Source of the DNA: Veillonellales bacterium
GTDB taxonomy: Bacteria > Bacillota > Negativicutes > JAAYSF01
Assembly (NCBI GenBank): GCA_039680175.1
Contig: JBDKTO010000117.1
Span: forward strand, 47,278-111,277
Reading direction: 5' to 3'
Length of the DNA stretch: 64,000 nt
A program made the translations under genes and the position numbers. Each line of letters starts with the position of its first letter. The stretch's first letter is position 1. Under the pieces are notes generated by a model. That model ran no database searches. It had not been told where the DNA came from and worked only from the letters and a program-made list of their open reading frames with translations. Positions 20,851 through 64,000 of the stretch are shown here, piece after piece.

Positions 20851-20852
20851 TT

Positions 20853-21605: not shown

Positions 21606-21610
21606 GCGCA

Positions 21611-21644: not shown

Positions 21645-21889
21645 CGCTTAATGTGCCCGGCGTCAGGTTAAATGAAGGGATAATTTACGGTTAGGCACAG
21701 CGGGAGAAGCTGTTCTTTTTATTTTGACTGAACAGGAAATATTTATTAAATAGAGAATTTCTATAAGTATAATCTGCTAAAATTTTCTTGCGTTGTCATT
21801 GTAAGGCTGAGAAAGTAATTTTAGGCGTACAGGTTTTTCTTTCTTGCTAATGACAGCAGCCACTTCAATGAAAAGGAGCTGCGAATTGA

Positions 21890-23272: not shown

Positions 23273-23306
23273 GGAAGCGGACTAAAAAATCAGGGAAAAA
23301 AGGAGC

Positions 23307-24902: not shown

Positions 24903-24949
24903 GCCTGGCTGTGTATCCCGGATTTTTCCATACAGAAAGGTGTGGTCCG

Positions 24950-25909: not shown

Positions 25910-26023
25910 TTCGATTAGCGACACAGAGTATCATGAAAGAGCATCGGGGGAGGCTCCAGAGATCGCCGCGTCGCTATCGCTCCTCGCGATGACAGAATTC
26001 AGTGCTATGCACCAAGTACGACG

Positions 26024-26066
26024 TACCAAGTACCATGAGCTATGAGCTATGAGCTATGAGCTATGC
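26024..26066. repeat. Heptanucleotide tandem repeat (ATGAGCT)n
   Basis: ccatgagctatgagctatgagctatgagctatgcgccatgcgcc. Related arrays lie at ~42949-43008, ~47173-47245 and ~52579-52632. Confidence 0.7.
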
Positions 26067-26120
26067 GCCATGCGCCGAATCTCCGCGTTATCCGAGAGAC
26101 TAATCCATAGGAGGCTGACG

Positions 26121-28544: not shown

Positions 28545-30029
28545 ATGAATGATCAGGATTTGCGGCCGATTGTGGAGGTCAGTTATTTAAGCACGGACAA
28601 CACCTGGCGGTACCGGGCTATTTTGCGGTACTGCTTTCTCCAGCATGAGCGTTTGCGCCACTATGTGTATCCGGAAGAGATTTATCAGGATTTGCGGCAA
28701 AACAGTTTTTTTGCCGAATACAGCGAGGACCAGCTGCAGCAGGATTTAAAGCAGCTGGTGGAGTGGAAGAATTTGATTCCCCGGCAGGAAACGGGACGGG
28801 TTCATACGATTGAGGACTTTAAGCGAAAAAAGTTTCGCTATCAATGTACGCCCTACACGATTGAAATTGAACGGATGGTGAATAAGCTGGCCCAGCTGGG
28901 GGGCGGCTTTGGCGGCGGTTCTCTGGAGGTTACGCTGTTTGAGCGGCTGCTATCATCGCTGGTGCGGCTGCTGGAGCAGGGAATGACTCTGGAGGCGGGG
29001 GAACTGAATCAGACGTGGGAAGATTTGTACGGCTATTTTCGCGACATGGTGCAGAATGCTTCCGATTATCTGGCGCATTTGAAAAGCGACAAGGTGGAGG
29101 AGCACATGATGACGGAGGCGTTTGTCGCGTATAAGAATGCGTTTACCCAGTATTTGCAGAATTTTATTTTGAGTATGCAGCGGACTTCTTTTAAAATCGA
29201 GGGGGCGCTGAAAAAGGCTTCGCCGGAGCTGGCAGCCGGGATCGCCGGGAGGCTGGCGGATTACCAGCTGAGCATTCCCCGGATGGAGCCCCAACCCGGA
29301 CGGGAAGAGTGGCAGGAAAGCTATCAGGATAAATACCGCAGTCTGTCCGAGTGGTTTTTGGGGCGGGGAAATCATCCCAGCGAACTGATCACGCTGCAGA
29401 ATGAGACGACGGAAACAATCAGGCGGATTACCCGGTTTGCCCAGCGGGTGGGGGAGAGACGGCAGGCGTTCCGCAGCCGGCGTCATGATTATCTGCATTT
29501 GGCCGGCTGGTTTGCCGGTCTGCCGGCAGTGGGGGAATGCCATCAGCTGTCGTCGCTCTTATTCGGCATTGCCCATACCCGCCATTTTTACGGCGAACCC
29601 CGGCTCAGCGAGGATATGGACAGTTTGGTGTGGGACGAAGCGCCGACAGTGGTGACGGTGACGCCGCGGGTCGCAGGCTACCGGGAGAAGAGCCGGCCGG
29701 GGGCGGTGGTTGACCGGACGGCGGAAAAGCGGGCCGCTTTGCAGGAGTATATTGCCGGTCAGCGGCAGAAGGAAGCGTTGCTTGAGGGGTTAATCTGCAA
29801 TCAGCGGATTGTATTGGCCGATTTGCCGGAAGTGGATCCCTTTGTCCGCAAAACGCTGCTGGTGTGGATTACCCGCTGCATGCAAAATAAGGAGCGGCGG
29901 ATTCAGACTGAGACCGGGCGAAGCATCCGGCTGCTGGACGGCGTCAGGGGCAGCCGGACTGTGCTGCGCAGTACGGACGGCGAACTGGAGATGCCGAATT
30001 ATATTTTAGAATTCAGCGGTGCCCGGTAA
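28545..30029 (+). CDS. jetA: Wadjet JetA-like / MksF-like kleisin-type subunit (DUF3375 / TIGR02677-type)
   Basis: 494 aa. It is the first of four co-oriented, overlapping genes ending in a >1400-aa SMC-like ATPase and a Toprim protein. Glycine-rich linker GGGFGGGS. Size and position fit JetA. The family was not verified by search. Confidence 0.6.
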   Translation: MNDQDLRPIVEVSYLSTDNTWRYRAILRYCFLQHERLRHYVYPEEIYQDLRQNSFFAEYSEDQLQQDLKQLVEWKNLIPRQETGRVHTIEDFKRKKFRYQCTPYTIEIERMVNKLAQLGGGFGGGSLEVTLFERLLSSLVRLLEQGMTLEAGELNQTWEDLYGYFRDMVQNASDYLAHLKSDKVEEHMMTEAFVAYKNAFTQYLQNFILSMQRTSFKIEGALKKASPELAAGIAGRLADYQLSIPRMEPQPGREEWQESYQDKYRSLSEWFLGRGNHPSELITLQNETTETIRRITRFAQRVGERRQAFRSRRHDYLHLAGWFAGLPAVGECHQLSSLLFGIAHTRHFYGEPRLSEDMDSLVWDEAPTVVTVTPRVAGYREKSRPGAVVDRTAEKRAALQEYIAGQRQKEALLEGLICNQRIVLADLPEVDPFVRKTLLVWITRCMQNKERRIQTETGRSIRLLDGVRGSRTVLRSTDGELEMPNYILEFSGAR

Positions 30030-30051
30030 ACAGAAAAGTGTGGAGGATGTT

Positions 30052-31254
30052 ATGGCGCAGGACAATCTGGTTTCGCTGCAGGCTGATCCGGAAGATATCA
30101 GAGAAGCAACGACGTTACTATTGGAAAATTATTGGATTCTCCGGGAGGAACAGCCGGAGCAGTATCAGCTGATCCGCCGTTATGAACCGGCGTTAAGACG
30201 GTATTTTTTTGAAAAATGCGGCTGGCGGCTGATTCAAAATCCTCAGTTCTACAAGCTGGAAAAAATTCCGGATCAGCCCCAGGCCTGGATGGGAATTGAA
30301 AGTTTTCAGCAACCCAGGGATTATTCGCTGCTGTGCTGCCTGCTGGCTTTTTTGGAAGAAAAGGCGGTAGAGGAGCAATTTTTGCTCAGTGAGCTGTGTG
30401 AAAGCATTTTGGCTTTCTATCCTCACGAGGCGGGGGACGGCGGCAGGCTGAACTGGGAAAATTATGAGCATCGCCGGTCGCTGGTCCGGGTCCTTGCCTT
30501 TGCGGCGGAAGCCGGACTGCTGCGGCTGGTGGATGGAGACAGCGAGCAGTTTGCGATGCGCCGGGAGGGGGAAGCCTTGTATGAGGTGACTCTGTTGGCG
30601 CGTTATTTTTTACGTTCCTATCCGAAAGATTTGCAGCAGTACGACAGCATGCAATCGCTGCAGGCCGCCGAGCTTTCCGACGACGAGGCTGCTACGGGGA
30701 CGGGGCGCCGGAACCGGATTTACCGGCAGCTGCTGCTGACGGCGGCGTATAACGGCGACGACGCCCGGCCGGAAGATTTCGCCTATTTACGGAATATGCA
30801 GCGGCGGCTGCGGGAGGAACTGGAGAATACGACCGGTCTGCAGTTTGAACTGTACAAGGATTGCGCTATGCTGACAAGCCCGGAACGGACCGGCTGGGGC
30901 CGGCAGATTTTTCCGGCTTATCGCAGCGGGATTCATGCCGTGGTTTTGCATTTTGCGGCACTGTACCGCCGGCAGCGGCAGAAAAAAGAGGCGCCGGACA
31001 GTCTGAGCGCCGTGGAATTCGAGGGTTTGGCGGCGGAATGCCGCCGGGAGTATGGGTCGGGCTGGACGAAGGAATACCGGGAGCTGCCGCTGGGCAGACT
31101 GGCTGCCACTGTGCTGGCGGAGCTGGTGGAGTGGAATATGGCGGTAACCGACAGGGAAACCGGACTGATTCAATTCCGACCGGCGCTGGGACGGCTGCAG
31201 GGGCAGTATCCGACGGATTATCAGGGCAAGAGCCGGGAGGGGAAAAGCAGATGA
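30052..31254 (+). CDS. jetB: Wadjet JetB-like / MksE-like subunit (DUF4194 / TIGR02678-type)
   Basis: ~400 aa. A strong RBS (ggagg) lies 7 nt upstream of the ATG at 30052. Its stop TGA overlaps the jetC ATG (ATGA at 31251-31254). Confidence 0.55.
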   Translation: MAQDNLVSLQADPEDIREATTLLLENYWILREEQPEQYQLIRRYEPALRRYFFEKCGWRLIQNPQFYKLEKIPDQPQAWMGIESFQQPRDYSLLCCLLAFLEEKAVEEQFLLSELCESILAFYPHEAGDGGRLNWENYEHRRSLVRVLAFAAEAGLLRLVDGDSEQFAMRREGEALYEVTLLARYFLRSYPKDLQQYDSMQSLQAAELSDDEAATGTGRRNRIYRQLLLTAAYNGDDARPEDFAYLRNMQRRLREELENTTGLQFELYKDCAMLTSPERTGWGRQIFPAYRSGIHAVVLHFAALYRRQRQKKEAPDSLSAVEFEGLAAECRREYGSGWTKEYRELPLGRLAATVLAELVEWNMAVTDRETGLIQFRPALGRLQGQYPTDYQGKSREGKSR

Positions 31255-34200
31255 GGAACAAATGGCAGATGAACCGGGCCGGTGTGCTGAATTACTGGTA
31301 TTATGATGAGGAAGAATTTGATTTTGCCGATGGACGGCTGCTGCTGCGAGGCAGCAACGGATCGGGAAAATCGGTGACGATGCAAAGCTTGATTACGGTG
31401 CTGCTTGACGGGGTCAAGAGTCCGGACCGTTTGGACAGCTTTGGTTCCCGTTCCCGGCGGATGGAGGATTATCTGCTGGGGGAAAAGGAAATCGTCAACC
31501 GGGATGAGCGTACCGGCTATCTGTATCTGGAGTACAAGCGGCAGCAGACGGATCAATATGTGACCACCGGTATCGGTCTTCACGCCCGGCGCGGCGGCAC
31601 CGTTGATTTTTGGGGCTTTGTCATTACCGACAACCGGCGTATCGGCCGGGATTTCTGGCTGTATAAGCGGGAGATGAATCCGGAAGACGGCTCCCCCCAG
31701 CGCATCCCTTTTACCCGGGCCGAGCTGGAACGGGCCGTCGGCTCCGGCGGACAGGTGGTGCGGTCGCAGAAGGACTATATGGAACTGGTGAACCGGCATG
31801 TATTCGGGTTCGAGAATTTGGAGCAGTATCAGGAACTGATGAAGCTTCTCATTCAGCTGCGCAGTCCGAAATTGTCTAAGGATTTTAAGCCCAGTGTTAT
31901 TTATGAAATTTTAAATGAATCGCTGCCGTCTTTGTCGGATGAAGAATTGCGTCCGTTGTCGGATACGATTGAAAGCATGGAGCGGATCAAGCTTCAGATC
32001 GAGCAAATGGAACGGGATCGCCAGGCTTTGAACCGGTTGTGCCGCCAGTATGACGGATATAACGAGTATGTGCTGGCGGAAAAGGCGGACTTGGCGCAAA
32101 AAGCCGAACGGCGGCACAGCCGGCTGGAACGGGAGGGCAAAGAACTGGCGGAAGGACTAGCGGAAGCAGCCGGACTGCTGACGGAACAGCGGCGGAGTCA
32201 GGCGGAGCTGGAACGGGAGCTGGCAGTTCTGGAAGTGGAAAAGGCGGAACTGGAGAAGCATGATGTATTTCAGGTGGAGCAGCAAAAGCAGGCCAAGGAA
32301 CAGCAGCTGATCCAGCTGGAGGGTGAGCAGAAAAACCGGGAAGAGAAATTGGCGGAGCGGCAAAAGGGAGAGCGGGAAGAACGGCAGCTGGTTTTGGAAT
32401 ATGAAGGACAGCGGGAAACCTTCCGGCAGGGAATGGAAGAACAGCTGGAAGACATGGCTGCTTTGGCGGCGGAAGCTGATTTCAGCGATCATGAGTTGTT
32501 GGCGCGGGATTTTGCCGTTCAGCCGGCAAAGGTTTCTTTCGGGGGATGGCGGCAAAATTCCCAATCCCATGTAGCAAGGCTGGAAGCGGGGCTGCAGGTG
32601 CTGCGTCGGCAGCGGGAAGCCCGGCTGCGCCGCGACCGGATTGAACAGGAACTGGGGGAGGAACGGCGACTGCTCGACGAATACCGGGGCGAACATCGTA
32701 AGCTGGAGCAGCGGTTTCTGGAGGTCCGGGAGCAGCTGTTGGCCGATGTGTACAGCTGGCAGCAGCGTTATGACGCTGATTTGCCGCTGGAGAAGGAAGA
32801 ACTGCGGCAGATTGCCCAGGGCATTCAGGGATTGTATGAAGGACGGCTGTGGAGCGATGTGCAGGCGCCGCTGGATACAGCTTACGGGCGGCAGGTCGAC
32901 CGGCTGAACCAGGAACTGGGTTTAAACGGAGCCCGGCTGCGCCAGCTGGAGGAACAGGAACAGGGTCTGCAGCAGGAACTGCAATCCTGGCGGGATCAGC
33001 GGGATCCGGAGCCGGAGCGGCTGCCGGATGTGGAGGCGACCCGCCGGCTGCTGACGGAAAAACAGGTCCCTTTCGTGCCTTTTTATGCGGCTGTCGAATT
33101 TGATTCCAGGGTGACGCCGGCCATGCGGGAGCGTCTGGAAGCGGCACTGACCGATATGGGGCTGCTGGATGCTTTGATTGTTCCGGCCGGCCGGCTGCCG
33201 GAACTTTCCGGACTGGAGGCTTACGGTTCGGTGTTTTATCCGGATCCCCAGATTATGACTGCCACGCTGGCGGATTATCTGCAGCCGACTCCGCCGGTAG
33301 ACGGGAAGGTGTCGGCGGCGGATATTGATGAGGTTCTGCGGAGCATTTTGATTGACGACTGCCGGCCGGGGACAGGGCCGGCGGCGAATGGCAGCAGCCA
33401 GCCGGTGCTTTCGGCTGACAGCGGCGATTACCGGTTGAACCTCGTCAGCGGTCGGGCGTCCCGCCGCCAGTCGGCGGTCTATATCGGCAGGCAGGCCCGT
33501 CAGGAATACCGGCGCCGGCAGATGGCTGAGCTGGAGGAAAAGCTACGGGAAACGGCGCTGGCTGTGGAAGAGGTTCATGGGAAAATGCAGCTGCTGCGAA
33601 GCCGTCAGGAGAAAAATCGCCAGGCCAGGGAAGACTTTCCGGCAGAAACGGAAATCCGGGAGATTTTTCATAACAAGCAGGCGGTGACCGCGAATATTGT
33701 CCGGCAGGAACAGCGGGTCAATGTAGTGGACGGGCGGCTGCGGGAAGTTACCGGTGAAGTGCTGTCTTTGCGGCAGGAGTGGCAGAAGGTCAGCGACGGG
33801 CTGAAGCTGCCGGCGGATGAATCCGGTTATGAAGGCGCGGTGTCGGTGATGCGGCAGTATCAGCAGAGTCTCCATGAGCTGGAATTGAGCCGGCAGGGAT
33901 TTTTGAACAGCAGCGATAATGCCCGGCAATGCGGCCGACGGCTGGCGGATTTGTCCGCCGAGGTGGACGGATTGAAAGGCGAACTGCTGGTGCAGGAAGG
34001 CCGGCTGCAGACGATCCGGCTGGAAATTGACCGGCTGGAAAGCCGGATGCGGGAGATGGGAGCGGAAGAACTGCGGGAGCGTGTTCGGTTTGTGGCCAAA
34101 CGGCTGAAGGAAATACCGGCAGCGGTCAAAGAACTGATTGCCGCTGCTGCCAAACTGGAAGGCGATATTCGCCTCCAGGAAAGCCGCAAGCTGGAAGTGG

Positions 34201-35480
34201 CGGCTAAGACTCAGTTTGTCGGACAGCTGATTGTCTGCTGGCAGCAGCTGCTGAAGCAGGAATTGCAGCTGGGTTTGGTTTATCCGCCGGACGAGACGAC
34301 TGACAGCGGCGGGATCCTTCGCGACAAGGGCGGCTGGCTGAAGCCTGACAAACCGGACCGCATCAGCCTGACGGATCGGATCAGCAAAAGCTTTGCGGTG
34401 GAAAATAATGTGCTGATGGAATACCGGATGCAGCTGGAGCCGCTGACTGTTGAAATTAAGGCTGTACCGGTTTTGCCGGAAAATAGGGAGGAAGACGACG
34501 GACTGGCCGCCGATCTGGAAAAGCTGCGGGAGAAATCGCATCGTCTGGTGATTACTCTGGATTACGACGGACGGCGGCAGAATCCTTATCAACTGCAGCA
34601 GGTTTTGAACCGGCAAATTGAGGAGCAAAAGGCGATTTTGTCCGATAAGGACAAGGAATTGTATGAAGAAGTGATTATGAACAGTATCGGCCGGATTATC
34701 AGCCGCCGCATCCGTTCGGCTCAGCAATGGGTAGAGAAAATGAACAAACTGATGCAGCAGCGGGACAATTCCAGCGGATTGAAGTTTAAACTGGAGTGGA
34801 AAGCGCGGACCGCGGACCGGGATGAGGAACTGGATACGCAGGATTTGGTGCGGCTGCTGCATGCCGATCCGGCGGTTCTAAAGGAAGAGGATTTAGCGAA
34901 AATGGTGAGCCACTTTCAGTCCCGCATCCAGCAGGCCAAGCAGGCCAGCGAAGGAGCAGCCGGGGAAGCCGAGGCCACTTTTCAGCAGGCCGTCCGGCAG
35001 CTGCTGGATTATCGCCTCTGGTTCCAATTTAAGCTGCAGTATACCCAGGTAAATTTGAACTGGCGGGAACTGAGCGATAAGGTATTTTTCAAGTTCAGCG
35101 GCGGTGAAAAAGCCATGGCCATGTATATTCCCCTATTTTCAGCCGCTTATTCCCGTTATCAGGAGGCCGGTCCGGACGCGCCGTATATTATTACTTTGGA
35201 TGAAGCCTTTGCCGGGGTGGATGAAAACAATATCCGGGATACTTTTGCCTTAGTGGAGCAGTTAGGGTTTAATTATATTATGAATTCCCAGGCGTTGTGG
35301 GGAGATTATGATGTGGTGCCGTCTTTGGCGGTTTGCGAGCTGATTCGCCCCCAGAATGCGCCTTATGTTACGGTGGTGCGGTATCACTGGAACGGGTCGG
35401 TGCGGACACTGCAGGCAGCCGGCGAGGCGGAACAGGCTGCTTCTTCGGTGGTGGCCGCCGCCCGGCAGGGGGAACAATGA
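31251..35480 (+). CDS. jetC: Wadjet JetC-like / MksB-like SMC-family ATPase
   Basis: 1409 aa from the ATG at 31251. The ORF-track start at 30861 lies inside jetB and is rejected. Walker A GSNGSGKS (aa 34-41). Two long E/Q/R/L-rich coiled-coil arms. C-terminal ABC signature FSGGEKAMAMYIPLF and Walker B YIITLDEAFAGVDE. Confidence 0.8.
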   Translation: MRNKWQMNRAGVLNYWYYDEEEFDFADGRLLLRGSNGSGKSVTMQSLITVLLDGVKSPDRLDSFGSRSRRMEDYLLGEKEIVNRDERTGYLYLEYKRQQTDQYVTTGIGLHARRGGTVDFWGFVITDNRRIGRDFWLYKREMNPEDGSPQRIPFTRAELERAVGSGGQVVRSQKDYMELVNRHVFGFENLEQYQELMKLLIQLRSPKLSKDFKPSVIYEILNESLPSLSDEELRPLSDTIESMERIKLQIEQMERDRQALNRLCRQYDGYNEYVLAEKADLAQKAERRHSRLEREGKELAEGLAEAAGLLTEQRRSQAELERELAVLEVEKAELEKHDVFQVEQQKQAKEQQLIQLEGEQKNREEKLAERQKGEREERQLVLEYEGQRETFRQGMEEQLEDMAALAAEADFSDHELLARDFAVQPAKVSFGGWRQNSQSHVARLEAGLQVLRRQREARLRRDRIEQELGEERRLLDEYRGEHRKLEQRFLEVREQLLADVYSWQQRYDADLPLEKEELRQIAQGIQGLYEGRLWSDVQAPLDTAYGRQVDRLNQELGLNGARLRQLEEQEQGLQQELQSWRDQRDPEPERLPDVEATRRLLTEKQVPFVPFYAAVEFDSRVTPAMRERLEAALTDMGLLDALIVPAGRLPELSGLEAYGSVFYPDPQIMTATLADYLQPTPPVDGKVSAADIDEVLRSILIDDCRPGTGPAANGSSQPVLSADSGDYRLNLVSGRASRRQSAVYIGRQARQEYRRRQMAELEEKLRETALAVEEVHGKMQLLRSRQEKNRQAREDFPAETEIREIFHNKQAVTANIVRQEQRVNVVDGRLREVTGEVLSLRQEWQKVSDGLKLPADESGYEGAVSVMRQYQQSLHELELSRQGFLNSSDNARQCGRRLADLSAEVDGLKGELLVQEGRLQTIRLEIDRLESRMREMGAEELRERVRFVAKRLKEIPAAVKELIAAAAKLEGDIRLQESRKLEVAAKTQFVGQLIVCWQQLLKQELQLGLVYPPDETTDSGGILRDKGGWLKPDKPDRISLTDRISKSFAVENNVLMEYRMQLEPLTVEIKAVPVLPENREEDDGLAADLEKLREKSHRLVITLDYDGRRQNPYQLQQVLNRQIEEQKAILSDKDKELYEEVIMNSIGRIISRRIRSAQQWVEKMNKLMQQRDNSSGLKFKLEWKARTADRDEELDTQDLVRLLHADPAVLKEEDLAKMVSHFQSRIQQAKQASEGAAGEAEATFQQAVRQLLDYRLWFQFKLQYTQVNLNWRELSDKVFFKFSGGEKAMAMYIPLFSAAYSRYQEAGPDAPYIITLDEAFAGVDENNIRDTFALVEQLGFNYIMNSQALWGDYDVVPSLAVCELIRPQNAPYVTVVRYHWNGSVRTLQAAGEAEQAASSVVAAARQGEQ

Positions 35481-36853
35481 GCGGAAAGAAGCCGCAGGAC
35501 CTACTGCTGGCCGAGGCGGCGGACTACTTTCATTCCCATTCCGGCCTGGAGCGCCTCCTGGCCGGAATGACGGAAAAGTACCGTACGCTGGGCCGGCTGG
35601 CGGGAGTCGTGGTATTGACCGGAGTCAGCAGGGAAGAAAAGACAGCTTTGGAGTCTTTTTTTCGCCGGGTGCTGCCGGCAGGCAGTCTGCGGATTTCCGC
35701 CGAAAAGTTTAAAACCGCCTTGGCGGAAACCCGGTTCGGCGGTTTGGACCCCTTGGCGGTACTGGCGGCCTGGCAGGGAGAACCCCTTGTCAGCCGCCGG
35801 GAGAAGCAGGAGCAGGCAGAGAGCCGGCGGCGCCGGGCGTTGACAGCATTGTTGGCTAAGTTTTCTCAGCCTTTTTGCCAGGCTTGGCTGAAAGGGGCGC
35901 TGGACCGGGAAGAAGGTACAAGACGGGTGCAGACGGCCTTTCGCCGCGATCCCCGTCGGTTTATGGAGAATATGTCAGTGGCGCTGCGGGCTATGGCCGG
36001 GTTGCCGGAAGAATATCGGCGGCTGCCGGTATTTTCCCGGGAAATATGCGGCAATCCCCACGGCCTGGATATTGACGGTGAGGCCGGGAAACTGCTGTTG
36101 GAAGGACTGGCATATATCCGCCGGTCAAGGCAGGAAGAGTGCGACAGCTCCTTTTGCACCGGCGACGGCGGCGAATCGCCGGAGAGACTGTCGGCTATTG
36201 AAGTAATTACGGAACTGTTGTATCATTTTCGGCTGCTGAGGGATGATTTGCTGAATTTTGTGACTTGCATCGGTTTGGCCGCTGATGACCGGCGGGGAGA
36301 GATCGTCTACTGGCGCCGGGCGGTTCAGGCCGGTGCGCCGCTGAATCTGCCCCTGCGGGAGGTAGTGCGGGCGGTAAAAATTTATCCGGCGGCAGCCGGG
36401 CGAGAGAACGATGCTGGTTATGAGGTGCTGGTGGTGGAAAATTCCGGAGTATTTTCGGCCCTGCTGGATGAAAAAGGCGGGGACGGCAGCTGGGGGGGAA
36501 AACCGCTGGTTTGTCTCCACGGTCAGCCGAAGCTGGCTTCCTGGGCTCTGCTGGATCGTCTTGCCGGCAGCGGTGCGCTGCTGCGCTATGCCGGCGATTT
36601 TGATCCGGAAGGGCTGCAGATTGCCCAGAAATTACTGCGGCGGTATGCCGGCCGGGCCGGTCTTTGGCGCATGACGGCGGCGGATTACCGGGAGGCCGGT
36701 CCGTCTGAACCCATCGGCCGGGGCCGGCTGAACAAATTACGGTCTGTTGTCCTGCCGGAACTGGCGCCGCTGTGTCAGCTGATGGAGCAGACGGGCCTGG
36801 CGGCTTATCAGGAGGGATTGCTGGCAAAGCTGGCCGCGGATATAGAACTTTAA
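35477..36853 (+). CDS. jetD: Wadjet JetD-like / MksG-like protein with a C-terminal Toprim-like domain (DUF3323+DUF2220-type)
   Basis: 458 aa. ATGA overlap with the jetC stop. The C-terminal region has Toprim-like acidic motifs (LVVENSGVF ... AGDFDPEGLQIA). Confidence 0.65.
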   Translation: MSGKKPQDLLLAEAADYFHSHSGLERLLAGMTEKYRTLGRLAGVVVLTGVSREEKTALESFFRRVLPAGSLRISAEKFKTALAETRFGGLDPLAVLAAWQGEPLVSRREKQEQAESRRRRALTALLAKFSQPFCQAWLKGALDREEGTRRVQTAFRRDPRRFMENMSVALRAMAGLPEEYRRLPVFSREICGNPHGLDIDGEAGKLLLEGLAYIRRSRQEECDSSFCTGDGGESPERLSAIEVITELLYHFRLLRDDLLNFVTCIGLAADDRRGEIVYWRRAVQAGAPLNLPLREVVRAVKIYPAAAGRENDAGYEVLVVENSGVFSALLDEKGGDGSWGGKPLVCLHGQPKLASWALLDRLAGSGALLRYAGDFDPEGLQIAQKLLRRYAGRAGLWRMTAADYREAGPSEPIGRGRLNKLRSVVLPELAPLCQLMEQTGLAAYQEGLLAKLAADIEL

Positions 36854-42803: not shown

Positions 42804-43035
42804 AATATTTGGCAGTCTCCTTTCAAAGTTGTAAATGCAAGAACAATGCAGAACATATGTTTGATATATTATCTATATAGTAACAAAATTTCCTGCTAAT
42901 GGCAATAGAAAAATGAGAACGGATTTGGCGATGGGCAGAAAACCAAGGCGCATGGCTCATGGCTCATGGCTCATAGCGCATGGCTTATAGCGCATGGCTC
43001 ATAGCCAAGTATTAGCACAGAATACCCTATTACTC

Positions 43036-43124
43036 TGTCATCGCGAGGCGTCAGCCGCGGCGATCTCAAAGGAGGAAAGAGGCGATAGAGGCCGGGAGAT
43101 TGCTTCGCTGCCGCTCGCAATTAC
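43036..43124. repeat. ~90-bp dispersed element with terminal inverted repeats TGTCATYGCGAG / CTCGCAATKACA. This is the long version. Other copies lie at 46783-46877 and 59504-59593.
   Basis: tgtcatcgcgaggcgtcagccgcggcgatctcaaa...gagattgcttcgctgccgctcgcaattaca. Short half-copies (gagattgcttcgctg[cg]gctcgcaatgacag) lie at ~11203-11236, ~11527-11560, ~15478-15513, ~15808-15843, ~18822-18867, ~25959-26003, ~41356-41395 and ~45300-45345. Confidence 0.65.
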
Positions 43125-43215
43125 AAATCCAAGTCCTCAGTCCCCAGTCCCCAGTGCCAGGTGCCAAGTTCCAAGTCCCAAGTCCCCAGTTCCAAGTTCC
43201 AAGTGCCAGTCTCTG
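43125..43215. repeat. Heptanucleotide tandem repeat array, consensus CCMRGTN (STRR-like)
   Basis: ccaagtc ctcagtc cccagtc cccagtg ccaggtg ccaagtt ccaagtc ccaagtc cccagtt ccaagtt ccaagtg: 11-12 contiguous units of period 7. Confidence 0.75.
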
Positions 43216-45184: not shown

Positions 45185-45220
45185 CGGGGCGCATAGCAGG
45201 GGGATAGGGACGAAAGAATG

Positions 45221-45281
45221 GGACTTGGGACTTGGGACTTGGAATTCAGTTCCCATTACTAAGTTCCAAGTTCCGCTTTTT
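45221..45281 (+). terminator. Probable intrinsic terminator built from inverted heptamer repeats (gggacttgggacttgg ... ccaagttccaagttcc + TTTTT)
   Basis: Imperfect inverted repeat of the CCAAGTN units followed by a T-run, directly after the ABC-F stop. Confidence 0.45.
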
Positions 45282-47078: not shown

Positions 47079-47254
47079 CGAAGAAAGCATCAGAGCCTGT
47101 GTCAGGTTCTGATGCTTTTCTGTTTAGGACTATAATATTTTATTCCTTTCGCCAAGTACTAACTATCAACTGCCAAGTGCCATGAGCTATGAGCTATGAG
47201 CTATGAGCTATGAGCTATGAGCTATGAGCCATGAGCCATGAGCCAAAAAACGCG

Positions 47255-51297: not shown

Positions 51298-51792
51298 TTG
51301 CGGATGACGGATGAGAACGTAAAACTTATTTTAGAAAAACTGGATTTTATTGCTGCCGATGTATCCGGATTGAAGACCGACGTATTGGAACTGAAAATGG
51401 ATGTATCCGGATTGAAGAATGACGTATCGGAGCTGAAAACGGATGTATCCGGATTGAAGAGTGATGTATCGGAGCTGAAAACGGATGTATCCGGATTGAA
51501 GAGTGACGTATCGGAGCTGAAAACGGACGTATCCGGATTAAAGACTGATGTATCCGGATTGAAAGGAGATATTTTAGGCCTCAAAGAGGATGTCGTGAGG
51601 CTGGATGGAAAAATTGATCATTTTGTCGCCGAACAGCAAAAAGATGTTGTGGTTTTGCTGAATATTATGAACACAAAACTGGATAAACAGTCCGAAATAT
51701 TAAAGATACTTTCCACCCGTTCCATAGAACAGGAAGCGGATATTGCTCTTTTAAAAAAGTTTAAAGAAAAGCTAAAAACAGAATGCGCTTAG
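51298..51792 (+). CDS. Tandem-heptad-repeat protein (DVSGLKT/DVSELKT x ~11). Hypothetical.
   Basis: 164 aa. Nucleotides 51355-51590 are near-perfect 21/42-nt tandem repeats. The opposite-strand ORF 51249..51584 is a shadow of the same repeats. The C-terminal LDGKIDHF..LKK tail resembles that of ORF 53118..53516. Confidence 0.5.
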   Translation: MRMTDENVKLILEKLDFIAADVSGLKTDVLELKMDVSGLKNDVSELKTDVSGLKSDVSELKTDVSGLKSDVSELKTDVSGLKTDVSGLKGDILGLKEDVVRLDGKIDHFVAEQQKDVVVLLNIMNTKLDKQSEILKILSTRSIEQEADIALLKKFKEKLKTECA

Positions 51793-52433: not shown

Positions 52434-52578
52434 ACGCCTTTCGTCATAAAATCACGTATTATTTAAGGTTAGCCATAAAACAACATAATCCTGCCGGGAG
52501 ATTAAAAAAATATATATTTTCCCTAAAAGACAACAAAAATTCTGGCAATTAGTCGGACAATATTAGTATAATAGAGAT

Positions 52579-52632
52579 GGGCTGTGGGCTGTGGGCTGTG
52601 GGCTGTGGGCCAAGTGCCAAGTGCCAATCGCC
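52579..52632. repeat. Heptanucleotide tandem repeats (GGGCTGT)x4 followed by (GCCAAGT)x2-3
   Basis: gggctgtgggctgtgggctgtgggctgtgggccaagtgccaagtgccaatcgcc, directly upstream of the yvyF-like gene. Confidence 0.7.
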
Positions 52633-52661
52633 AATATTACTTCACACGGGAGGAATTCATC

Positions 52662-53117: not shown

Positions 53118-53516
53118 GTGGAAGAATTGCTAAAACAGCTCATTGCAGGGCAAAAGCAAATTTTAGGGCGGATGGACCACATTGAAAAAGAGCAAATTGA
53201 TGTAAAACAGGCAGTCGTTCGTCTTGAAAAAGAGCAAACCGATACAAAACAGGCAGTCGTTCGTATTGAGAAAGAGCAGAGCGATACAAAACAGGCAATG
53301 GCCCGTATGGAAAAAGAGCAAGCTGATATAAAACAGGCAGTCGTTCGCATGGAAAATCAGCATGGTGAAAAATTAGCGGCGCTTTATGATGCCCGCGAAG
53401 TCCAATTGGACGTCAATGAGCGAATTTTTGACAGCCTAAACCGGATTGAAGGAAAAATAGACCGGATTTCTCTAAAGGTATCATCCCACGAAACCTTGCT
53501 CAAAAAAGTAAAATAA
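53118..53516 (+). CDS. Tandem-repeat coiled-coil protein (EKEQxDxKQAVVR x4). Hypothetical.
   Basis: 132 aa with 39-nt tandem repeats. GTG start. The opposite-strand ORFs (53063..53350, 53163..53363) are repeat shadows. Confidence 0.45.
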   Translation: MEELLKQLIAGQKQILGRMDHIEKEQIDVKQAVVRLEKEQTDTKQAVVRIEKEQSDTKQAMARMEKEQADIKQAVVRMENQHGEKLAALYDAREVQLDVNERIFDSLNRIEGKIDRISLKVSSHETLLKKVK

Positions 53517-57801: not shown

Positions 57802-57985
57802 CGGGCGGGACGGAGAGCGGAACTTAGCACTTGGGACTTGGAATGAGGGGAGAGGGACGGGGACGGAGTGCGGAATTTGGGACTGGGAACGTTAAGAGAT
57901 TTGGAATTGGAAGCTGGATTTTAAGAAGCTTGGCTTTCCCGGAAAGAACTTTCCCATCATTAAAGAGAAGAGGGAATATGTGTTT

Positions 57986-58357
57986 ATGGCTGAGTTACAT
58001 GGATTCAGGGACCTTCGTGTGTGGCAGGATGCTATGAAATTAGCAGTCGATGTGGTCAAACTTGCAGACAAACTACCAAGGCAGGAACTGCATGGGCTAA
58101 GCTTGCAAATCCGTCGAAGCGCGGTTTCGGTTCCATCCAACATTGCCGAGGGGTGGGGCAGAAAGAGGGATAAAGAATTTTGTTATTTTATTGATATTGC
58201 TTATGGAAGTCTGTGTGAAGTAGAGACACAATTAGAATTAGCTTTGCGTTGTTATGGGATGGAAATTAATGATATAATAATCCAGTGTAATGGTATACAA
58301 AAACAGCTTCGGGCTTTGCGAAAAAAGATTGAGGAACGAGTACAGGGAAAGGGGTAA
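57986..58357 (+). CDS. Four-helix-bundle protein (rRNA-intervening-sequence-type, TIGR02436-like)
   Basis: MAELHGFRDLRVWQDAMKLAVDV...SNIAEGWGRKRDKEFCYFIDIAYGSLCEVETQLELAL is typical of this widely inserted family. Flanked on both sides by inverted heptamer-repeat arrays. Confidence 0.7.
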   Translation: MAELHGFRDLRVWQDAMKLAVDVVKLADKLPRQELHGLSLQIRRSAVSVPSNIAEGWGRKRDKEFCYFIDIAYGSLCEVETQLELALRCYGMEINDIIIQCNGIQKQLRALRKKIEERVQGKG

Positions 58358-58713
58358 TGAGAAGTTGGCACTTGGGACCTGAAAATTGGAAATTGGTAAG
58401 GAGAGACGGTGCGAAGAGTTGGAACTTGGCACCTGGCAAGAAGAAACGGGTATTAAGGACTGGGGACTGCACTTAGCATTTGGCACCTGGGACTTGGTAA
58501 GAATTCTAAGTGCGAAATACTAAGCACCGGCCGGGCCACTCAGTGTGTTCTTTCGTTTTTCGTGTTTCCCCAAGTTCCAAGTCCTAAGTACCAAATTCCG
58601 CTTTTTCCCCGTTCCACTCTTTCCTTCGTTCCCCTTCCAAGTCCCCATTACCAAGTTCCAAGTCCCGTTTTCCCCCAAGTCCCCATTACCAATCCCGAAT
58701 AGGAGGCCTACCC

Positions 58714-59172
58714 ATGCTTATTCACTCTACCCGCTTCGGCGACATTGACGTTCCCGCAGAACAAATACTTCAGTTTCCTCATGGAATACCCGGTTTTCCG
58801 GCGGAAAAGGTTTTTGCTTATCTGGTACGGGACAAGAAAAGTCCTTTTTCTTTTTTACAGTCAGCTTCCGATCCGAATCTGACTTTTTTATTGGCGGAAC
58901 CGTTTACTTTTTTCAATGATTATGAATTTGCGCTTGATGACGGAATTGCTCAGGAAATGGGGTTGTCGGAGGAAAATCCGCCTCAGATTTTTACCATGGC
59001 GACGCTGAAAGGCAAGCTGGAAGACATGACGGTGAATCTCTTGGCGCCACTAGTCATCAACACCAAGGAGCGCACCGGCAGGCAAATCATTCTGGATCGG
59101 TCCCAGTATTCAACCCGCCAGAAATTATTTCCCAACGGCTTGCCCCAGCAAGCTGCCAAAGGGGGTAAATAA
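58714..59172 (+). CDS. fliW: Flagellar assembly factor FliW
   Basis: MLIHSTRFGDIDVPAEQILQFPHGIPGFP is the canonical FliW N-terminus. 152 aa. Confidence 0.9.
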   Translation: MLIHSTRFGDIDVPAEQILQFPHGIPGFPAEKVFAYLVRDKKSPFSFLQSASDPNLTFLLAEPFTFFNDYEFALDDGIAQEMGLSEENPPQIFTMATLKGKLEDMTVNLLAPLVINTKERTGRQIILDRSQYSTRQKLFPNGLPQQAAKGGK

Positions 59173-59173
59173 G

Positions 59174-59410
59174 ATGCTGGCACTTACTCGCAAGACCGGT
59201 GAACGGATTGTCGTCGGCGATAACGTGGTTATTACCATTTTCGATATCAAAGGCGATAGCGTCCGCTTGTCCATTGAAGCTCCCAAAGAAGTGAAAGTCT
59301 ACCGCGGCGAACTCTTCGACGCCATCGCCGCCGAGAATAAGCAGGCCGCCGTCCTGAATGACCTGGAAGGACTGGCGGGGATTAAGAGACGGGATGAGAG
59401 CGGGACTTAG
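59174..59410 (+). CDS. csrA: Carbon storage regulator CsrA
   Basis: MLALTRKTGERIVVGDNVVITIFDIKGDSVRLSIEAPKEVKVYRGEL. 78 aa. Confidence 0.9.
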   Translation: MLALTRKTGERIVVGDNVVITIFDIKGDSVRLSIEAPKEVKVYRGELFDAIAAENKQAAVLNDLEGLAGIKRRDESGT

Positions 59411-59437
59411 TATTGGGGACTGGGAAATTGGAAATTA

Positions 59438-59492
59438 GGACTTGGGACTTGGAATTCAGTTTCCATTACCAAGTTCCAAGTCCCGCTTTTTT
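59438..59492 (+). terminator. Probable intrinsic terminator after csrA, formed by inverted heptamer repeats (ggacttgggacttgg ... ccaagttccaagtcc + TTTTTT)
   Basis: 15-nt arms with one mismatch, a 16-nt loop and a T-run. Confidence 0.5.
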
Positions 59493-59771
59493 CAGTCTCC
59501 TGCTTGTCATCGCGAGGCGTAAGCCGCGGCGATCTCAAAGCCGGAGAGGCGTCAGGAAGAGCGAGATTGCTTCGCTGCCGCTCGCAATGACAGAATATTC
59601 ATTCAAGTCCCCACTGCCAAGTCCCAAGAGCTCTTTACCGCCTTATTCCAAGTGCCAATTACCAAGTCCCATCTTCCCGTTCCCCCCCCAAGTTCCAAGT
59701 CCCCATTACCAAGTTCCGTTTCCCTCGTCCCCCCATTTCCAAGTGCCAAAAAAAAAATCCCCGTTCCCTCT

Positions 59772-59798
59772 TAAGTTTTCTGTCGAACCATCCGATAT
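59772..59798 (+). promoter_or_regulatory. Putative sigma-28 (SigD/FliA) promoter of the flagellin gene
   Basis: TAAG-N15-tCCGATAT matches the consensus TAAA-N15-GCCGATAT. ~115 nt upstream of the flagellin ATG, which has RBS aaggaggag. Confidence 0.55.
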
Positions 59799-59912
59799 AT
59801 AGGTTGTACATGTCAAATAGCTCACTTTCCCGAACCGGCCGGAGGGAAAGCTGAGCGTAAGGCAAAATAAGCCGGGCAAGGACGCCCGGTAATACTCAAG
59901 GAGGAGAACTTT

Positions 59913-62345
59913 ATGATTATTAACACCAATATGGCGGCTCTGAATACCACTCGTCAGTTGGGTATTAATGAAAAGAATACCCAGAGTTCTTTGGCAAAAT
60001 TGTCTTCCGGTCTTCGCATCAACAGCGCGGCTGACGATGCAGCCGGTCTGGCGATTTCCGAAAAAATGCGGGGCCAGATTCGCGGTTTGAACCAAGCTTC
60101 GGCTAACGCTCAGAATGGTATCTCGATGGTATCCACCGCCGAAGCCAACCTGAACGAAACGACCAGCATTCTTCAGAGAATGAAAGAACTGGCTACCAAC
60201 GCAGCCAGTGACACCAATACTCCGGACGACCGGGATGCTATGCAGAAGGAAATGAACCAGTTGACTTCTGAAATCAACCGGATCGGCAATACCGCTGAGT
60301 TCAATACCCAGAAATTATTGAATGGCGGCGGCGTGGAAACCCAGCTTACGGTTAATACCGTTAAAGCCGGCGCAGCAGCAGGTAATTTTGATGGCGCGGG
60401 CGCATTTACCAGGGTGGCAGTCGGTTCAGGAACGGCCGCAGTTACTAGTGCAGTCACTGTTGACGGAACGAATACCGTTACGGTTACTTCGGGTGCTGCG
60501 AACGGAGCTACAGCAAATGCTTACTCTATCAAATTTGATTCCGCTAGTAGCGGCAGTACAACTGCAAGTGTTCAGGGAAGCGTTATTACTGTACATTTAG
60601 ATAAAACGAACGCTGCTATCGCGGCTGCTGACATCCAAACGGCACTGACTGGACTTACTGTACCCGGTTTAGACGCGAGTAAATTTACAGTAGCTGTTAG
60701 TGCGGCTGTCGACGGCACAAAAGCAATTACTAGTGCTGTTACTGGGTTAGGATCCGGTACTGCAGGTATATCTGCTGCCACAGCTCTTGTTGCTGCCGAT
60801 AATGCCTACACGATGCCCATAACTACAATAACTGCAGGTGTTCAAGGCAATGCGTCGGTATGGGATTCCGGTGCTGTTACTGCGTTAGGCAACGGGGCAA
60901 GCGGAACAGTTACTTTTAATGGTGTAACGGTATCGATTAACAGTTCTGCTTCAGGTGCGGTCGGTCCGTCTGCGACTGATGGAAGAACCGCAAGCGTAAC
61001 TGTCGCTGATGGTTCTACTGCCGATCAGACTGCTGCTGCGATTGTAAGTGCATTCAATGCGGCCAAAGCATACGGTGGTAGTGAACTAAAGGACTTTACT
61101 TTTACTACTAACGGAAGCCAATTCAAGATTACGGATACGTTTGCCAACGGCGCAACGAACAATGCTTTAAACATTACAACTTCTGGTGTAACACTTACCG
61201 GTGGTGCCAAAGTAGCTGGTGTAACGGAAGTTAGAGGTAAATACACTGTCGCAATCGATAAAGCCTTTGAAGCAGCGGGCATGAGCATCAATATTGATGG
61301 ACAAACGTTTACTACGGTGGCTTCCGGAGCTAAGGCTTCTGCTCAGCAGATTAACGTTGGAACGGATGTACATCAACAAGCTTTAGAATTGGCTCAGGCA
61401 ATGAATGCCAATGCCACTATAAGCTCTCGCTTTGATGCGACTGTAGATGATGCAGGAAAGATTACTTTGACTGAGAAAACGGGGCAAGCTTTCAATACTG
61501 CGTTGGCAAGCGGCTATGTAGTAGGGAACAAAGCTATGGCAGGTATTGCTGACTTCACTGTTGATACTCCCGTTGCAGTTGGTGGAAAATATGAGATTGA
61601 CGGCGTAAAGATTGCAGTAACGGATGATGCTAGTGATTCCAGAATTGCTCAGGGTACTGCCGTTCTGTATAATGCCGACAAAGCGACGCAAACCCAGAAC
61701 TTGATGCAGGCGATTACTGCCAATGCTAGCTTAAATACCAAATATACTGCTACCGCCTCTTCCAATACCATTACGTTGACCCAGAAAACCGGTCAGGAAT
61801 CAATGGTGAAAGCAGCCGCACTGACAGGCACGAATGCCAACGATGGCTTCACGGCTACCTTCCAAATCGGTGCCAATACCGGACAGACTATGATTGTTGA
61901 TATGTCCGATATGCGTTCACTGGCACTGGGAATCTCCGGCACGACTGCTGGTGCAACTCTCACTGCTAAGAATGGCGCTCAGGCTAATCTGACCCAGATA
62001 AAGACGGCTTCCAATGGTTCCGATAACAATAATGTGGAGTATTCCCTTGATCTGTCTACCGCTTCCAAAGCAACGGCAGCCATCAGTATTATTGACGATG
62101 CTACTGCTAAGGTTTCGGCAGAACGGGCTAAATTGGGTGCCTACCAGAACCGTCTGGAACACACCATTAACAACTTGCAGTCTTCTTCGCAGAACATCAC
62201 CAGTGCTGAAGCCAGCATCCGCGATGTAGATATGGCTTCGGAAATGACCAATTTCCAGAAAAACAACATTCTCCAACAGGCTGCACAAGCCATGCTGGCC
62301 CAAGCCAACCAACAGGGCCAGGGCGTACTGCAATTACTGAGATAA
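59913..62345 (+). CDS. fliC: Flagellin (unusually long, 810 aa, with a large hypervariable central domain)
   Basis: Canonical D0/D1 N-terminus (MIINTNMAALNTTRQLGIN...LSSGLRINSAADDAAGLAISEKMRGQIRGL) and C-terminus (LGAYQNRLEHTINNLQ...ILQQAAQAMLAQANQQGQGVLQLLR). The ~550-aa A/T/G/S/V-rich middle region has internal duplications. Confidence 0.9.
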   Translation: MIINTNMAALNTTRQLGINEKNTQSSLAKLSSGLRINSAADDAAGLAISEKMRGQIRGLNQASANAQNGISMVSTAEANLNETTSILQRMKELATNAASDTNTPDDRDAMQKEMNQLTSEINRIGNTAEFNTQKLLNGGGVETQLTVNTVKAGAAAGNFDGAGAFTRVAVGSGTAAVTSAVTVDGTNTVTVTSGAANGATANAYSIKFDSASSGSTTASVQGSVITVHLDKTNAAIAAADIQTALTGLTVPGLDASKFTVAVSAAVDGTKAITSAVTGLGSGTAGISAATALVAADNAYTMPITTITAGVQGNASVWDSGAVTALGNGASGTVTFNGVTVSINSSASGAVGPSATDGRTASVTVADGSTADQTAAAIVSAFNAAKAYGGSELKDFTFTTNGSQFKITDTFANGATNNALNITTSGVTLTGGAKVAGVTEVRGKYTVAIDKAFEAAGMSINIDGQTFTTVASGAKASAQQINVGTDVHQQALELAQAMNANATISSRFDATVDDAGKITLTEKTGQAFNTALASGYVVGNKAMAGIADFTVDTPVAVGGKYEIDGVKIAVTDDASDSRIAQGTAVLYNADKATQTQNLMQAITANASLNTKYTATASSNTITLTQKTGQESMVKAAALTGTNANDGFTATFQIGANTGQTMIVDMSDMRSLALGISGTTAGATLTAKNGAQANLTQIKTASNGSDNNNVEYSLDLSTASKATAAISIIDDATAKVSAERAKLGAYQNRLEHTINNLQSSSQNITSAEASIRDVDMASEMTNFQKNNILQQAAQAMLAQANQQGQGVLQLLR

Positions 62346-62392
62346 TTGGATTTATGTTGAGCTAGCCAGTTAATAAAGGTTTCTTTGAACGG

Positions 62393-62427
62393 GAGCCAGG
62401 GACGCTTGTCTCTGGCTCTTGTTTTAG
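62393..62427 (+). terminator. Intrinsic terminator after the flagellin gene
   Basis: gagccagggacgcttgtctctggctc hairpin followed by ttgttttag. Confidence 0.55.
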
Positions 62428-62654
62428 TTACAGGTACTGAGCGGGTACTTGGTACTTGGCACCTGGAACTTGGGGGAGGGCGGGTACTGGAGTGGTAATG
62501 GGCACTTGGCACTTGGAGCTTGGCAGGGGAACGGGCGTATGTGCCGTTGGTGCGTGATGATGCGCTCCGTTCTTCCCCAAGTCCCTATTTCTAAGTTCCA
62601 AGTTCCCATTACCAAGTGCCAACTACCAAAACTACAACTAGGAGAGTGTTTCCT

Positions 62655-63899
62655 ATGGCAAAAATGCGAACAATCCTGCAGCCTCAGTACGTAGCGAAGT
62701 TCCGGTGCATCGGTCCGGCCTGCGAAGACAGCTGTTGTATTGGCTGGCAAGTACCGATTGATAAAACGACTTACCAAAAGTATCGTAAATGTGCTGATGA
62801 AAAATTGCGCTCGCAGATGGATGACAAAGTGACCCGCAATCGCGGCGCCAATATGGCGGATGATAATTATGCCAAAGTAAAACTCAATGATGATAATTCC
62901 TGCCCGTTTATCGATAGCGACCGGCTCTGCGCGATTCAGCGACAGTTGGGCGAGGAATGGCTGTCCCTTACTTGTGCCACCTATCCCCGTATTACGAATA
63001 AAGTGAATGGAACATTAGAAAGGTCAATGACTTTATCTTGTCCGGAAGCTGCTCGGCTGGCATTACTGACCACCGGATTGATGGAGTTTGATCAGTTGGA
63101 AGAATCCGACAGTATTCGGTATAACCCGGAAAAAAACATCGATACCGATGATATTAAACTTGCGGCGAAGCCGCAAAGATATCTCTGGGAGCTGCGTATC
63201 TTTATAATCACACTCCTGCAGAATCGCGTTTATCCTCTTTGGCAGCGCCTTGTCGTCCTCGGGCTGTTTTGCAATCAGCTTACCGAACTTGTCGGTAATG
63301 GCAAAGTACATGATATTCCGATGCTCATCGGTACGTATCTGAACCGTTTGGAACAAGGCGATATCCTCAGCAATATGGAGGCGATCCCCGAAAAGCAGAC
63401 GATTCAGATGGAACTATTGAAAGAATTAGCCGATGAACGGTTTGCTACCGGTATAATTAGCCCCCGCTTTTTGGCGTATTTTGCTGAATTTCTGCAGGGA
63501 ATTCAGTATATGGAGGCTGCTGGCAAAGCGGAGATCGGCGTTCGTTATGCCGAGGCTTATGAACGGTATTATCAGCCGTTTATGGAACAACATGAATATA
63601 TACTGGAAAACTATCTGGTTAATTATGTATTTAAAAATCTATTCCCCTTTGAGGGAGAGAAGCATATTTTTGATAATTTTATGCTGCTTGTTGTGCATTA
63701 TGCGATGATAAAGATGATGCTTATAGGTATGTCCGGGTTCCATAAGGATAAATTCGGCATGGATCAAGTGCTGAATCTGATTCAGTCTTTCGTCAAAGTT
63801 GTCGAGCATAGTCCCTCTTATTTGAAGAAAGTGTGTGATTTGCTTAAAGCCAATCAGATGAATACTCTGCCGTATATGACGATACTGATCAAGAATTAA
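62655..63899 (+). CDS. fliB: FliB-family flagellin lysine-N-methylase (putative)
   Basis: Cysteine-rich N-terminus (FRCIGPACEDSCCIGWQVPIDKTTYQKY...SCPFIDSDRLCAIQ) typical of flagellin lysine-N-methylases. Immediately downstream of the flagellin. ~414 aa from the internal start. Confidence 0.55.
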   Translation: MAKMRTILQPQYVAKFRCIGPACEDSCCIGWQVPIDKTTYQKYRKCADEKLRSQMDDKVTRNRGANMADDNYAKVKLNDDNSCPFIDSDRLCAIQRQLGEEWLSLTCATYPRITNKVNGTLERSMTLSCPEAARLALLTTGLMEFDQLEESDSIRYNPEKNIDTDDIKLAAKPQRYLWELRIFIITLLQNRVYPLWQRLVVLGLFCNQLTELVGNGKVHDIPMLIGTYLNRLEQGDILSNMEAIPEKQTIQMELLKELADERFATGIISPRFLAYFAEFLQGIQYMEAAGKAEIGVRYAEAYERYYQPFMEQHEYILENYLVNYVFKNLFPFEGEKHIFDNFMLLVVHYAMIKMMLIGMSGFHKDKFGMDQVLNLIQSFVKVVEHSPSYLKKVCDLLKANQMNTLPYMTILIKN

Positions 63900-63908
63900 C
63901 GGGTGAGA

Positions 63909-64000
63909 AAATGAATGTGTATAATGACCCTGCCCACGAGATTGTCTATCATATTCTGGGTTTATTGCCAACCATCGAGGCGGCTTTGACGCATATGGTG
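63909..64000 (+). CDS. 5' end of an unidentified gene (partial; runs off the window)
   Basis: ATG with an upstream gggtgag RBS. The open frame continues to the window end. Confidence 0.3.

Follow-up and report, generated by a model that had tools for sequence, protein, structure and literature searches.

A large flagellin with duplicated outer modules and an adjacent FliB-type lysine methylase gene in the filament locus of a Veillonellales bacterium

It is at the end of a 64,000-nucleotide stretch of DNA from a Veillonellales (Negativicutes) bacterium (contig JBDKTO010000117.1 of assembly GCA_039680175.1, hereafter the window) where a flagellin gene and a gene of the flagellin lysine-N-methylase family, fliB, follow each other as the two plus-strand open reading frames (ORFs) that make up the last 4 kb (59913-62345 and 62616-63899). 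Within the flagellar regulon this locus forms the filament module, and we consider it probable that FliB methylates here a large flagellin built with duplicated modules, the translation of which would be gated by FliW and CsrA. The pairing is correct but ordinary, with both proteins already so named in NCBI, which holds identical sequences as “MAG: flagellin” (P0001) and “MAG: flagellin lysine-N-methylase” (P0032), both from a Veillonellales bacterium (MAG, metagenome-assembled genome). As a mechanism, we suggest that the D0/D1 core of the flagellin would polymerise into the filament with four additional modules forming a surface insert, and that FliB most likely methylates the ε-amino groups of exposed flagellin lysines in the cytoplasm, before export, which would raise the hydrophobicity of the filament surface. 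The gene order of the locus is flgN-flgK-flgL-DUF6470, then a gene for a four-helix bundle, fliW and csrA, followed by the flagellin gene, fliB and a DUF8042 gene, so the genes of FlgN, FlgK, FlgL, DUF6470, FliW and CsrA upstream of the flagellin gene give it the setting of a late flagellar cluster. The genes beyond the end of the window were judged from a syntenic relative, another Veillonellales MAG (L003), in which the 10 kb past the flagellin gene hold fliB, DUF8042, an antitoxin gene, flaG, fliD and fliS; its flagellin is 80% identical in the central region and the flagellin-fliB-DUF8042 order is kept. The features at the centre of this work are the following:

59913-62345, plus strand: flagellin gene, 810 amino acids (aa), from Pfam, NCBIfam and identity to P0001
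60333-61217, plus strand: variable part of the insert, an older duplication of outer modules, X1 (aa 141-298) and X2 (aa 299-435)
61218-61808, plus strand: conserved tandem duplication of outer modules, Y1 (aa 436-537) and Y2 (aa 538-632), holding the two repeated peptides quoted in the first-pass annotation
62655-63899, plus strand: fliB, homologue of flagellin lysine-N-methylase, 414 aa, from NF038110, PF27117 and its Cys motif

The assignment of the downstream gene to the FliB family, which the first-pass annotation of this DNA had left to be decided by a profile search, passed that search clearly, given that NF038110 matches it with 349.4 bits where 85 would suffice (E 3e-104) and is covered from position 1 to position 372 of its 373, and PF27117 (FliB_C) is precomputed on P0032, whose protein is identical to the FliB of the window. 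The Cys-rich N-terminus was also found as described: the motif CX4CX3CC corresponds to C18, C23, C27 and C28 in the 414-aa numbering and is invariant in 15 homologues, and C83, C92, C107 and C129 are invariant in the same 15-member alignment, making eight Cys in total. In Salmonella, FliB is a [4Fe-4S]- and S-adenosylmethionine-dependent enzyme with eight conserved Cys, of which the CX4CX3CC motif binds the [4Fe-4S] cluster (PMC8598068). The copy of Pfam that we used gave no match for FliB or DUF8042, because it is older than PF27117 and PF26154, and a PDB sequence search with the FliB profile returned no meaningful match and thus no related solved structure. The start of fliB was placed at ATG 62655, preceded by AGGAG at 62640 and in agreement with the 414-aa NCBI product, and it replaces the GTG at 62616 proposed earlier, which lies inside a repeat element. 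Both this ribosome-binding site and the start are kept in L003, with a different sequence further upstream, and the ATG stands 310 nt beyond the flagellin stop on the same strand.

The flagellin has canonical termini, as had been proposed, with Flagellin_N (PF00669) covering aa 3-138 (E 7e-43; 146.5 bits, cut-off 26.6) and Flagellin_C (PF00700) covering aa 724-809 (E 5.9e-28; 97.5 bits, cut-off 23); the NCBIfam Hag subfamily gives 274 bits, under its full-length cut-off because of the insert that this flagellin carries. Its 583-aa central region is rich in A, T, G, S and V (A 18.7%, T 15.1%, G 10.5%, V 8.4% and S 8.4%), again in line with the first-pass annotation. The label “giant”, in contrast, does not hold, since giant flagellins are by definition longer than 1000 aa (Thomson et al. 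2018; PMC6248924) and 810 aa makes a protein that is large only. The same goes for the idea that few lysines point to specific targets: Lys accounts for 24 of the 583 central residues (4.1%), a share inside the 2.8-7.0% spanned by the family, K:R is 24:6, and the density of lysines is somewhat higher in Y1/Y2 (11 of 197 aa) than in X1/X2 (9 of 295 aa). A special target specificity is therefore not supported by lysine content. No HExxH metalloprotease domain of the flagellinolysin type is present in the insert, and an enzymatic or adhesin-type insert was rejected, there being no such fold in it.

Among known systems, one of the closest is that of Salmonella enterica, where FliB and the flagellins FliC/FljB share with the present pair, as compared by profile and motif, the NF038110 match, the CX4CX3CC motif, the eight Cys and the flagellin-adjacent gene, besides exposed outer domains and sequences rich in A, G, T, V, S and D around the lysines. 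The methylated lysines of Salmonella lie in the exposed D2/D3 domains, follow no strict consensus and are found among A, G, T, V, S and Asp (PMC7181671), and this context of small residues and Asp is the very composition of the present insert, which counts in favour of methylation. The host here, unlike an enteric pathogen, is an environmental Negativicute MAG whose methylation is deduced from its genes, and in place of D2/D3 there is an 810-aa flagellin with four outer modules, plus the DUF8042 gene. Flagellin lysine methylation has so far been studied only in enteric bacteria, and it is probably widespread in anaerobic Firmicutes, which an oxygen-sensitive Fe-S methylase would suit well.

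FliB homologues are abundant, with 2528 matches at E<=1e-5 and at least 537 confirmed stretches in GTDB species genomes, and they occur in Sporomusa, Pelosinus, Paenibacillus, Brevibacillus, Bacillus, Clostridium, Desulfosporosinus and Acidobacteriota. Among 80 FliB loci taken from other genomes, a flagellin gene stands directly upstream of fliB on the same strand in 29 and within 8 kb in 8 more, and in the loci with Bacillota-type record titles fliB usually comes immediately after the flagellin gene; the flagellin-fliB order is thus common in Bacillota. The shortest of these upstream flagellins has 257 aa, the longest 1060, and 12 of the 29 have 302 aa or fewer, so that the proposed tie between FliB and large flagellins failed, and a FliB specific to large flagellins was rejected. 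Paenibacillus sp. S-38 (L079, NZ_CP187970.1) has seven 275-aa flagellin genes in tandem, with two copies of fliB interspersed among them, and in P. caseinilyticus (L065) two fliB copies accompany two genes for flagellins of 310 and 275 aa; FliB is therefore paired also with flagellins that lack any outer domains. This evidence that FliB is not restricted to flagellins bearing outer domains is relevant to the question of which surfaces get methylated.

Another modification has to be weighed against methylation, namely that the flagellin is mainly or additionally O-glycosylated on Ser and Thr, as in other Firmicutes, with FliB methylation being minor or accessory. Its central region is 23.5% Ser+Thr, and glycosyltransferase genes follow the flagellins of the same family in Clostridium thailandense and in an ENA contig. 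A fliB gene stands beside flagellin genes also in the flagellar variable regions of C. butyricum and C. beijerinckii, where methylation is predicted from annotation and glycosylation genes are often present as well (PMC13317340). No glycosyltransferase or nonulosonic-acid gene, however, adjoins the flagellin gene or fliB in the window, none lies within 10 kb downstream of the flagellin gene in L003, and the sugar genes that the window does contain (19768-27107) adjoin the capsule-assembly gene wzi, some 33 kb away. O-glycosylation would in any case be compatible with methylation, and this alternative, with FliB in a minor or accessory role, we regard as unlikely.

The proposed gating of flagellin translation and the expression of fliB depend on the following features around the two genes:

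58714-59172: fliW (PF02623)
59174-59410: csrA (PF02599), immediately upstream of the flagellin gene
59772-59798, plus strand: candidate promoter of the sigma-D/sigma-28 type, TAAG-N15-TCCGATAT, 114 nt upstream of the flagellin ATG
59872-59906, plus strand: flagellin leader with two CsrA-type GGA sites, one in the hairpin CCGGGC-AAGGAC-GCCCGG (59872-59889) and one in the Shine-Dalgarno (SD) sequence AAGGAGGAG (59898-59906)
62391-62425, plus strand: terminator-like hairpin with U tract, 46 nt past the flagellin stop, from its fold and with a putative function
62433-62637, plus strand: inverted heptamer arrays (ACTTGGN, then NCCAAGT), folding into a hairpin of about 190 nt that extends to the ribosome-binding site of fliB

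The 27-mer of the candidate promoter is identical in L003 and at the same distance (-141), and the sigma-D consensus of B. subtilis is TAAA-N15-GCCGATAT. In the predicted fold of the flagellin leader (z -4.1), AAGGAC lies in the hairpin loop, and a CAAGGA hairpin at about -44 together with TCAAGGAGG at the SD sequence is found also in Desulfosporosinus meridiei, C. thailandense and Gracilibacillus oryzae. Both GGA sites are conserved upstream of flagellin family members in four other loci. The presence of fliW and csrA genes and of two GGA sites, one of them overlapping the SD sequence, suggests that a FliW-CsrA partner switch probably gates flagellin translation via these two leader sites. 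B. subtilis has such a Hag-FliW-CsrA partner-switching circuit, with a Hag flagellin of about 300 aa that to our knowledge has no outer domains and is not accompanied by fliB. The two systems share the fliW and csrA genes upstream, the GGA hairpin with the GGA-containing SD sequence, and the sigma-D-like promoter, with the difference that the circuit proposed here is read from the sequence alone.

Downstream of the flagellin gene, the terminator-like stem and U tract are kept in L003, and a terminator consensus scan did not list this hairpin. The hairpin of about 190 nt before fliB has a folding energy of -135.8 kcal/mol (z -5.4) and comprises repeat families D1-D4 and inverted pairs I13, I17 and I23; the flagellin-fliB gap of L003 also has inverted heptamer arrays, made of another unit (CATAGCN/ATGAGCY). 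We suggest that fliB may be expressed by read-through or from a promoter of its own.

Several points weigh against methylation of this flagellin by FliB within such a module. The two hairpins of the gap separate the flagellin gene from fliB, so that their co-transcription is not assured, and a promoter scan found no fliB promoter. In 43 of the 80 FliB loci, mostly Acidobacteriota MAGs by record title, there is no flagellin gene within 8 kb, and because of this the FliB family may act on other substrates. Relatives of the flagellin in D. meridiei, where FlaG comes next, in C. thailandense and in the ENA contig have no adjacent fliB, which means that this flagellin type does not need FliB; among the loci of the flagellin family, L003 alone keeps the flagellin-fliB-DUF8042 order. 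The FliB literature that we found consists of work on Enterobacteriaceae plus the Clostridium predictions, with no experiment on a FliB of Bacillota or Negativicutes. As for the architecture, the conservation of Y1-Y2 probably reflects packing against neighbouring subunits, and this placement near the core is suggested by conservation only, since the AlphaFold model of the full-length flagellin (predicted local distance difference test, pLDDT, 76; predicted TM-score, pTM, 0.47) has an unreliable inter-domain geometry.

The hairpins ahead of fliB and the FliB loci without a nearby flagellin would also fit a fliB homologue that is decoupled from this flagellin, either poorly expressed or acting on another flagellin or protein, and so would the Gracilibacillus locus of the family, in which DUF8042 is kept, no fliB was detected and a transposase lies in the gap. 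Against such decoupling, the fliB frame is intact, with all the Cys of the catalytic motif, a good ribosome-binding site and a conserved start; the gene order is kept between the two MAGs despite outer regions of the flagellin that have diverged to 68-74% identity; and the place immediately after the flagellin gene is the usual one for fliB in Bacillota-type loci. We therefore hold decoupling to be quite improbable, and methylation of this flagellin by the neighbouring FliB remains our preferred reading.

Turning to the insert itself, about 490 aa are built of four beta/alpha modules by two tandem duplications, X1/X2 and Y1/Y2, and the conserved segment of aa 633-723 joins them back to the flagellin core. 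The internal duplication that had been read from two similar peptides, which map to aa 500-525 and aa 604-628, was borne out around both of them by windowed Smith-Waterman scores with shuffles and by hhalign, with profiles that were sub-alignments cut from the 25-member family alignment; a BLASTP search of the flagellin against itself returned the identity match alone. Y1 and Y2 score 83 by Smith-Waterman, where shuffles average 40.4 (sd 7.3, z 5.9) and none of 1000 attains that value, and hhalign aligns aa 436-530 with aa 538-632 over 86 columns at a probability of 99% (E 5.4e-18). For the older duplication, hhalign pairs aa 173-232 of X1 with aa 314-367 of X2 at 92.7% probability (E 4e-7), and a second stretch, aa 233-264 with aa 369-401, at 77.9%. 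The AlphaFold model of aa 299-632 has a pLDDT of 89 with the order of strands and helices repeated identically in Y1 and Y2, and the module fold is predicted to be of the ordinary outer-domain type of flagellin, FliD and phage sheath proteins. That the repeats are a mere compositional artefact of an Ala/Thr/Gly-rich low-complexity region is extremely improbable, for the strongly biased composition and the weak score of aa 141-260 against the remaining central region (z 1.5, reached by 78 of 1000 shuffles) are outweighed by the profile-profile comparisons of both pairs and by the shared secondary-structure order at a pLDDT of about 90, and for Y1/Y2 the artefact is refuted. The repeated VT(V/L)T/S motifs noted earlier exist as three exact copies (aa 189, 338 and 426), with ITLT at 517 and 620, and the motif as such is weak.

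Searched with the central region as query, the databases gave about 25 flagellins of 640-843 aa with 41-80% identity, from Desulfosporosinus, C. thailandense, Gracilibacillus, Ureibacillus, Schinkia and Heliobacteriaceae. The comparison of flagellin length and sequence, proposed across strains and run here across this family, confirmed a variable outer part, with X1-X2 diverged and Y1-Y2 kept. The identities to other members, with P0025 and P0030, the most divergent sequences of alignment A1, left out of the ranges for distant ones, are as follows:

Closest relative (P0002): N terminus 100%, X1 74%, X2 68%, Y1 89%, Y2 88%, aa 633-723 97%, C terminus 100%
More distant members: N terminus 69-78%, X1 19-37%, X2 28-54%, Y1 48-75%, Y2 51-84%

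As exceptions, X1 is 62% identical in P0003 and absent from the family members of 640-680 aa. The duplicated part marked by the two peptides is thus not hypervariable, as it had been called, given that Y1-Y2 is conserved about as well as D0/D1, at 50-89% identity across Negativicutes, Clostridia and Bacilli when P0025 and P0030 are left out, and that variation is confined to aa 141-435. X1-X2, diverging so quickly between close relatives, is presumably the exposed antigenic surface, from which such divergence would be expected. A HMMER search with Y1-Y2 matched 67 cluster representatives (50% identity) among 1.84 billion proteins at E<=1e-3; 7 of the 9 matches checked were flagellins, and some matches hold up to 8 matched stretches in proteins of up to 1431 aa. 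The domains of this rare family of large flagellins are thereby mapped, a fast-evolving distal pair of modules going together with a duplicated pair as conserved as the core. The flagellin of Geovibrio thiophilus (PDB 9au6, 792 aa), from a different phylum, has 20% identity and a TM-score of 0.23 to the present one, and its duplicate sits within a loop, in contrast with the tandem duplications described here.

The least ordinary leads of the locus are the DUF8042 gene as a partner of fliB and the hairpins made of heptamer repeats. The former begins inside the window:

63911-64000, plus strand: first 30 codons of the DUF8042 gene, cut by the window end, translation MNVYNDPAHEIVYHILGLLPTIEAALTHMV

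This translation matches the DUF8042 protein encoded after fliB in L003 (8349-8729 of that locus), a helical protein of about 125 aa. DUF8042 adjoins fliB in 16 of 81 loci, after it in 7 and before it in 9, and lies within 4 kb in 3 more; it stands sometimes between the flagellin gene and fliB, and every locus that has it carries a Bacillota-type record title. Its profile gave no meaningful PDB sequence match and nothing in NCBIfam. DUF8042 is thus a candidate FliB partner gene, and we offer tentatively, as a somewhat doubtful possibility, that in Bacillota FliB works with DUF8042 as a substrate adaptor, a chaperone or a factor presenting flagellin to the oxygen-sensitive Fe-S methylase. If this were true, DUF8042 would be a new component of flagellin methylation, not suggested by the Salmonella work. 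In G. oryzae (L006, 8606-11455), the 841-aa flagellin is followed by an unassigned 195-aa ORF, fragments of a Y2 transposase, a 78-aa flagellin-N fragment and DUF8042, with no fliB detected in this interval, and the locus gives the impression of a methylation module that a transposon has broken up.

As for the heptamers, arrays of them occupy the ORF gaps at 42947-43208, 45219-45271, 47152-47251, 52578-52635, 57812-57900, 58346-58714, 59391-59760 and 62433-62637, and also 26035-26065. The units are CCAAGTN, or its complement ACTTGGN, besides ATGAGCY, GGCTCAT and TGGGCTG, in tandem or nearly so, and the arrays are often inverted, bracketing a gene or folding into long hairpins. The sequence CCAAGTNCCAAGT occurs 32 times with at most one mismatch, against 0.2 expected. 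These heptamers resemble the STRR heptamers of cyanobacteria; they were not found in the loci of Desulfosporosinus, Pelosinus and Sporomusa that were checked, Rfam had no match within the window, and a literature search on STRR-like heptamer repeats outside cyanobacteria found nothing relevant. Between the DUF6470 gene and fliW (region 57802-58715), the gene at 57980-58357 encodes a four-helix bundle of the “23S rRNA intervening sequence protein” family (PF05635, E 3e-32; TIGR02436) and is flanked by inverted heptamer arms (57816-57851 and 58567-58602) that are 81% complementary; in the predicted fold a long stem encloses this ORF, in the manner of an rRNA intervening sequence. L003 carries the same gene at the corresponding position; D. 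meridiei and Gracilibacillus lack it.

Further away in the window, four consecutive genes at 28545-36853 encode DUF2397, DUF2398, an SMC/SbcC-like ATPase (a 1539-aa ORF) and DUF3323+DUF2399, a set that corresponds to JetA, JetB, JetC and JetD of a Wadjet anti-plasmid defence system. In-frame tandem repeats of 42 nt (14 aa) occur at 51358-51563, inside the gene of an Lpp-like coiled-coil lipoprotein (51298-51792, PF04728), and at 53181-53356, in a small coiled-coil ORF (53118-53516, EKEQxDxKQAVVR) upstream of a probable flgM.

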